DNA of 35,697 nucleotides from an uncultured bacterium (GTDB lineage: Bacteria > Bacillota_I > Bacilli_A > RF39 > UBA660): the NCBI GenBank assembly GCA_949291575.1, contig CASEWH010000014.1, positions 1 to 35,697 of the forward strand, written 5' to 3'. Below the pieces are notes generated by a model, which did not search any database, had not been told where the DNA came from, and was given only the letters and a program-made list of their open reading frames with translations. The position numbers and the translations under genes are program-made. This document shows, in pieces, positions 16,064 to 16,267 of this stretch. Position 1 is the stretch's first letter. Every line of letters begins with the position of its first letter.

Positions 16064-16081
16064 TTTTTCTTATTTGATACT

Positions 16082-16111
16082 TTGACAATTACCTAGAAAA
16101 TATGATACTAT
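16082..16111 (+). promoter_or_regulatory. SigA promoter of sRNA copy 2
   Basis: TTGACA(16082-16087)-18-TACTAT(16106-16111) with the TG extension; homologous to the copy 1 promoter. Confidence 0.72.
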
Positions 16112-16117
16112 GTATTT

Positions 16118-16200
16118 AGCAAAGAGATTTGTAATAAGAATAGATGCTTTCAAAAGTGATTTGGTTTGCATCTAATTCAAGAATTAGATGTCTTATTTAT
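16118..16200 (+). ncRNA. Putative antitoxin sRNA, copy 2 (~82 nt)
   Basis: Same blocks as copy 1: AGCAAAGAGATTTG, AGAATAGATGCTTTCA and GCATCTAATTC..GAATTAGATGTCTTATTTAT. Confidence 0.68.
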
Positions 16201-16267
16201 TGTTAAATAGGGGAGATAATAATAGGAGGAAGAAAAATAACTTAGTATGTTATTTTTCTTTTGTCTT
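16198..16267 (-). pseudogene. Decayed copy of the 27-aa peptide gene
   Basis: ATA ACA TAC TAA GTT ATT TTT CTT..ATT ATT ATC TCC CCT ATT TAA aligns with ATA GCT TAC TTT GTT ATT ATC CTT..ATA ATC ATC TCA CTT ATT TAT. The ATG is lost and there are in-frame stops. Confidence 0.55.
16230..16260 (-). terminator. Hairpin after the cse60-like gene
   Basis: AAGAAAAATAAC-ttagtat-GTTATTTTTCTT perfect 12-bp inverted repeat. Confidence 0.6.

Follow-up and report, generated by a model that had tools for sequence, protein, structure and literature searches.

A probable toxin-less allele in a likely type I toxin-antitoxin family from an uncultured gut bacterium of the RF39 lineage, with a predicted refolded antisense RNA and a candidate replacement terminator

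The window analyzed here, which comprises the 35,697 nt of contig CASEWH010000014.1 (assembly GCA_949291575.1, 1.22 Mb), contains two copies of a small repeat, and the second of them (copy 2) is very probably an allele without toxin. Copy 1 represents the intact form, a likely type I toxin-antitoxin module. A preliminary description of this DNA was right in taking copy 2 for an antitoxin-like RNA gene that has been orphaned, its peptide gene being dead. According to the structure models, copy 2 would be a defused and probably still transcribed allele, whose selected part is most likely a replacement terminator facing leuS-cse60; we consider this close to an even call.

In copy 1, a hydrophobic peptide of 27 AA (AGAAAGGAG), a putative type I toxin, is encoded by an ORF on the minus strand (11248..11331), which converges on a predicted antitoxin RNA of ~110 nt with three hairpins on the plus strand (11143..11252, fold z -6.5). 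This RNA overlaps the peptide mRNA and has a predicted promoter (TTGACA-17-TATTAT, 11108..11136, +, promoter scan) and terminator (11215-11242, +, terminator scan) of its own. The minus-strand region 11332..11442, all of which is missing in copy 2, contains the 5’ UTR, the promoter and a hairpin flanking the latter (11417-11442, -). Within this region, a strong RBS (11341-11349, -), an anti-SD hairpin (11344-11374, -), a 5’ UTR arm pairing with the mRNA 3’ end (11369-11401, -) and the -10 box of the peptide promoter (11406-11411, -) were located. For the peptide mRNA, an SD-sequestering hairpin was predicted in the nascent transcript and 5’-3’ pairing in the complete one (z -7.6). In its layout, copy 1 agrees with the type I toxin-antitoxin loci of Gram-positive bacteria described in PMC8167048, PMC2887945 and PMC6733600, and toxicity of the peptide is putative. 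At gathering threshold, no Rfam antitoxin family was matched in the window; the best value for copy 1 (E 0.33) belonged to unrelated families, and copy 2 was scanned at the gathering threshold only. A riboswitch or leader was ruled out, since no plus-strand gene follows either copy and no Rfam match was obtained.

A small hydrophobic peptide with a convergent antisense RNA is likewise found in txpA/RatA, bsrG/SR4 and C. difficile CD2517.1/RCd8. For the txpA/RatA type, full complementarity of the antisense RNA to the 3’ end of the mRNA is described in PMC8167048, and multiple and tandem copies in PMC2887945. The Fst/Ldr systems (par of pAD1) likewise have convergent RNAs, and their mRNA 5’ region and antisense RNA have direct repeats in common; the motif APXXXGXXX, given for them in a section of PMC8309996, was absent from all 16 aligned peptides of the present family. 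The predicted folding of the copy 1 mRNA resembles that of the H. pylori aapA/IsoA system, where, according to a section of PMC6733600, an SD-sequestering hairpin is formed in the nascent mRNA and long-distance 5’-3’ pairing in the complete one. In the copy 1 model, however, this long-distance pairing has the opposite effect on the SD, which becomes partly open instead of closed. The overlap with the antisense RNA is located at the 3’ side in copy 1, whereas IsoA overlaps the 5’ region of the aapA mRNA. When 11332-11401 was paired to 11169-11200 in the model of the complete mRNA, the unpaired probability at the SD hairpin rose from 0.0 to 0.2-0.5. On these models, the mRNA 3’ end may be activating rather than silencing, which would be the reverse of aapA.

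At least nine modules of type I toxin-antitoxin-like layout were found in the host genome, copy 1 included; the further modules, at least eight, share the architecture of copy 1 and differ from each other in the pairing sequence. They are located on contigs C8, C10 (two), C29, C73, C80, C94 and C96, and also on C19, C27 and C69; the C27 module appeared start-defective when judged by eye. Modules were chosen by eye from 28 candidate ORF rows, nine for a duplex test and ten for binding energies. The 5’-3’ mRNA duplex was better than 200 of 200 shuffles in eight of the nine modules and better than 199 of 200 in the ninth. Among 300 genomes of the bacterial family, 140 had matches, chiefly to the promoter and the first hairpin, and of 29 loci retrieved from further genera in this family, 22 encoded a similar peptide. 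The 16 aligned peptides, of only 22-33 AA, were searched as single members against Pfam, NCBIfam and PHROGs without a match (best E 0.006), which, together with the missing Rfam match, distinguishes the present family from systems of the txpA/RatA type. The subfamily motif was found in 48 stretches assigned to Candidatus Onthousia and uncultured Bacilli, and the viral contigs gave no match to it. Tandem module arrays with a period of ~350-390 bp and differing peptides were seen at L092 (G017:C5), L054 (G205:C3) and G122:C11. In the openly accessible papers searched, neither this family nor any type I system in RF39, UBA660 or Onthousia was described.

Five blocks of copy 1 are found again in copy 2 with order and orientation unchanged. 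Using BLASTN, 11101-11325 was aligned to 16075-16262 with 68% over 227 columns (E 6e-17), and the two copies were the sole members of their own subfamily in the 1.22-Mb assembly. The assignment of all five blocks to the small RNA has to be amended for the first one, which is the -35 region of the promoter and not RNA. Copy 2 as a direct duplicate of copy 1 was unsupported, its RNA part being nearer to another allele (95% of aligned sites, against 90% for copy 1). The 70 nt at 16201-16270 were compared to the peptide gene; the score of 40.5 was reached by none of 5000 dinucleotide shuffles and by two among 20000 windows drawn at random from the genome, with a top score of 133 that presumably stems from the loci themselves. 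This similarity had been called codon-by-codon, but a strict codon register is not kept, as gaps of 4, 2 and 1 nt are needed. The coding remnant (16201..16262, -, from the alignment) contains frameshifts, has no ATG and carries stops in all three minus frames.

Two deletions separate copy 2 from the intact form. The larger one comprises everything upstream of the second codon of the peptide, i.e., ATG, RBS, 5’ UTR, promoter and flanking hairpin. The hexamer TTTGTC is found where the peptide gene starts and again in G015, where an intact module occupies this site and has the hexamer at its end towards cse60; the sequences suggest that this deletion possibly arose through TTTGTC microhomology. 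The smaller one (site 16133..16134, +, from the alignment; common to all ten carriers described below) removed 22 nt consisting of an A-rich linker and the hairpin-2 5’ arm, and thereby also the 3’ pairing arm and the U-tract of the toxin mRNA, which is read from the opposite strand. Hence, contrary to what had been assumed, the small RNA was not kept intact, and the changes are not confined to loops, spacers or pairing-neutral positions, since loss of the 22 nt alters the predicted fold. The reported change of GCAAA/TTTGC to GCAAA/TTTGT (a G-U pair) is present. Contigs from three of four other runs span the deleted form; therefore, it is not an assembly artefact. Four runs labelled as RNA yielded contigs only, some of 18-59 kb and DNA-like.

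The copy 2 promoter (TTGACA-18-TACTAT with an extended -10 TG, 16082..16111, +, promoter scan) has kept its -10 box in 10/10 carriers and its -35 box in 9/10, and the spacer is variable. A perfect 12/12 σ70 promoter lies back-to-back with it (16035-16063, -) and drives a gene of 195 AA (15415-16002) without a Pfam or NCBIfam match. The predicted orphan RNA, in its long read-through form of about 150 nt with inferred ends, has four hairpins (16118..16270, +). It begins with a 5’ hairpin (16119..16132, +) with a GNRA loop, GAGA or GAAA among carriers, according to the consensus fold of eight carriers, followed by a 16-nt core (16137..16152, +; AGAAUAGAUGC), which is the perfect complement of the 3’ region of the copy 1 peptide mRNA. 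The ancestral terminator hairpin (16168..16191, +) is shortened and predicted to be mostly unformed (-8.5 vs -15.0 kcal/mol in copy 1). A perfect 12-bp hairpin, whose presence at 16230-16260 was confirmed, forms with a T-rich tail a candidate replacement terminator (16230..16270, +). The convergent gene (16269..16439, -), downstream of leuS, belongs to the cse60 family (Pfam PF10957, E 6e-22). For the 153-nt RNA, an MFE of -38.2 and z -4.3 were calculated; the reverse strand gave z -4.8, so both strands fold and the z-scores are uninformative for a strand call. A new ORF in copy 2 (59 AA on the plus strand, 40 AA on the minus strand) was rejected due to absent start context and indels among carriers.

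Both deletions were found together in 10 of 53 genus genomes, i.e., the host and G006, G014, G016, G017, G019, G020, G025, G029 and G035. In the latter nine, femAB3 directly precedes the copy 2 allele; in the host genome, copy 1 and an accessory pheT-pheS-orphan block are located between femAB3 and copy 2. On a map-adk-secY tree of 30 genomes (30 best loci only, leaving out 23 of the 53 genus genomes), the carriers were scattered with five changes, and a single clade was rejected (p-AU 7e-71). Since the carriers do not form a clade, the allele moves by recombination. Both deletions would have a single origin, and the allele would have spread via homologous recombination, for which the promoter and cse60 provide conserved flanks. 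The slot after femAB3 or before cse60 contains intact alleles, other subfamilies or nothing when other genomes and runs are compared, and some strains are without the whole copy 2 unit (joint 15394-16266). The new hairpin of G016 and of G025 is split by unrelated DNA, which we take to be insertion-sequence-like, resembling an ISL3 end; both loci (L009, L010) are cut at the hairpin loop and contain the same unrelated sequence. Because of these interruptions and the absence of the unit in some strains, it must be dispensable. A search of metagenome contigs for further orphan haplotypes by the junction pattern gave 33 matches, none of which was true. Other dead module forms have lost the ATG (G016), are interrupted (G031) or carry an internal deletion (G009). 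Independent inactivation by deletion between GCATCTAATTC direct repeats was seen at L108 (G361:C48) and L118 (G015:C46), where terminator and peptide are both gone.

The preferred reading of copy 2 as a defused allele with an exchanged terminator would start with loss of the hairpin-2 arm. The core would then be free to pair with the 5’ arm of the ancestral terminator before the 3’ arm is made, and this pairing would act as an antiterminator, upon which RNA polymerase would read through into the remnant. In equilibrium fold predictions, the ancestral terminator had a probability of 0.01 in copy 2, and the antiterminator was favored in 9/10 carriers (P 0.63-1.0). The terminator was predicted with P ≥ 0.99 in all 43 modules with both arms, out of 45 modules examined. 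The exception among the carriers is G014, in which the old terminator is predicted to be favored (0.96), and this counts against read-through. A weak hairpin of the old coding region would have become the perfect 12-bp stem, at which the RNA of ~150 nt may end, the stem thus being the replacement terminator for the copy 2 RNA. The new hairpin has -10.1 kcal/mol compared to 0.0 for the homologous copy 1 segment, its T-tail is found on the plus strand only, and it has one variable site in 31 among eight carriers, with a G-U pair kept. In 9/10 carriers, the new hairpin would also stop read-through from femAB3, and this stop would fall ahead of the convergent leuS-cse60 genes. At copy 1, the module terminator is the only terminator detected after femAB3. 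A terminator role is disfavored by the host genome, where no plus-strand gene lies upstream of copy 2, and by the dispensability of the unit seen from G016, G025 and the strains without it. The consensus terminator scan did not call the hairpin at 16230-16270, which was missed because it is A+T-rich. A terminator role leaves the uniform 5’ half unexplained and, therefore, allele youth must explain it.

Alternatively, the orphan RNA may be an antidote which pairs in trans with peptide mRNAs of the subfamily. On the pairing models, this is possible though somewhat unlikely. Copy 2 and the copy 1 mRNA have perfect complementary blocks of 20, 16 and 11 nt, and the predicted binding gain, which varied between -10 and -29 kcal/mol with the choice of ends, exceeds that of nine non-cognate candidates (0 to -7 kcal/mol), but is far below the -89 kcal/mol of the cognate RNA; three cognate binding energies (-100000) were set aside as artefacts. 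The core is invariant in 10/10 carriers, yet predicted to be mostly paired within the copy 2 RNA (mean unpaired 0.24). Thus, pairing to the copy 1 mRNA is predicted to be specific but weak. The long RNA form adds antisense to the coding region. A full-length cognate module is found elsewhere in 8/10 carriers, although that of G016 is without ATG, and G014 (85% complete) and G020 (93%) yielded no such module. Furthermore, every intact module has its own antisense RNA, and the related SprA1 and SprA2 antitoxins of S. aureus show no cross-regulation according to PMC8167048.

Such an antidote would, with the same somewhat low probability, protect a cell from poisoning when an intact module is lost or swapped, in the present genome copy 1 together with the pheST cargo, and this protection would favor spread between species. 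That copy 2 is an antidote-only RNA, lengthened by its own deletion and spreading via loss or exchange of addictive modules and cargo at the cassette slot, is rather unlikely. This would be RNA anti-addiction, comparable, among bacteria, to the antidote-only alleles that suppress toxin-antidote drive genes. Anti-addiction is known for type II systems: a resident antitoxin neutralizes an incoming homologous toxin in ccdAB of Erwinia chrysanthemi and in ataRT (a section of PMC10305079), and such cases are called rare in a section of PMC12548467. There, protein antitoxins act against plasmids, whereas a putative RNA would act against chromosomal sister alleles here. Neutralization of the sister alleles by the toxin-less one would make it an example of RNA anti-addiction and account for the loss of addictive chromosomal modules; without neutralization, copy 2 would be an ordinary stage of toxin-antitoxin decay combined with a terminator swap.

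Divergence was compared among eight of the ten carriers, G016 and G025 being left out over their replaced 3’ part. It amounts to 2.6% in the RNA part and 2.2% in the peptide remnant, compared to 19% at fourfold sites of femAB3, 18% at those of cse60 and 21% in the promoter spacer. Equal divergence of small RNA and pseudogene had been named in the preliminary description itself as speaking against its proposal that selection keeps the RNA and not the peptide. This proposal also finds no support in the contrast between copy 1 and copy 2 (83% RNA, 68% CDS), which matches that between intact alleles (85 vs 69 and 85 vs 65). The intact allele A differs by 0.3% over 200 nt in six genomes, with a femAB3 fourfold divergence of 20%, and allele B by 3.2% among four genomes. 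Because allele A is more uniform still, the low divergence of the orphan loses most of its force as evidence for selection. Judged from these divergences, cassette interiors reflect allele age and the flanks are reshuffled.

The same data would fit a neutral relic, i.e., a young defused allele too recent to have decayed and hitch-hiking on recombination at the slot, which we consider improbable. Uniformity as in allele A is normal at this locus, the RNA-versus-CDS contrast equals that of intact pairs, and other dead forms are common (G361, G015, G016, G031 and G009); of the dead forms, however, this one alone was found in ten genomes. The perfect hairpin would then stem from one mutational step, template switching, which is equally improbable. 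Template switching is a mechanism by which a perfect hairpin arises in one step. Among 48 consensus pairs of the eight carriers, five vary on one side and keep plus-strand pairing, one is broken, one is gapped and none has changed on both sides. Thus, five of six substitutions at paired columns keep plus-strand pairing, and the GNRA loop is kept in the consensus, which argues against a neutral relic. The changes keeping a wobble pair are modestly suggestive of constraint on the orphan RNA. Moreover, the -10 box is kept in all carriers, although promoters were exchanged with intact alleles. Highly unlikely is an exapted small RNA, refolded to 150 nt and having a new target unrelated to the peptide: the whole 145 nt are uniform with sharp borders and four predicted hairpins, but no Rfam family is matched at gathering threshold in the window, and the RNA is limited to part of one genus and dispensable.

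An antitoxin without toxin is already known from sokX, and the peptide/RNA family itself is unannotated. According to PMC12736100, 90% of 237 E. coli strains have hok plus sokX; the remaining strains, and likewise K-12, have only sokX. Like copy 2, sokX is a type I antitoxin left where other strains have toxin plus antitoxin. In contrast to sokX, whose sequence is unrelated, the antisense RNA of the copy 2 type overlaps the mRNA 3’ end, the copy 2 RNA is itself altered and predicted to be refolded, and the copy 2 allele crosses species boundaries. The modules described here document an unannotated family resembling type I toxin-antitoxin systems, with at least nine members in a genome of 1.2 Mb, and form, at one locus, a natural allelic series of intact, toxin-less and deleted states.

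The accessory cargo between the copies (11553..16002, -) consists of a second pheT-pheS pair and the 195-AA orphan gene. Duplicate tRNA ligases often confer inhibitor resistance. The accessory pheT-pheS (11553-15025) shares only 29-34% identity with the housekeeping pair, which is located on contig C107; all five relatives tested have the housekeeping pheST only. In the host, G015, G036, G370 and G004, the accessory pair is flanked by toxin-antitoxin-like modules. Two leuS alleles (16538-18940) with ~50% identical proteins alternate at one locus among close relatives (L062, L064, L065, L067, L070, L072, L074, L076, L077 and L081), which, as judged from the sequences, is wholesale replacement of an essential gene. 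Four FemAB/MurM-like paralogs are located around a flippase-like gene (910-3490, 6852-8078 and 9790-11091) and are 27-36% identical to the last of the four. A T-box leader (19322-19502) lies upstream of the leuS unit, and an S10 leader is found at 35391-35489.
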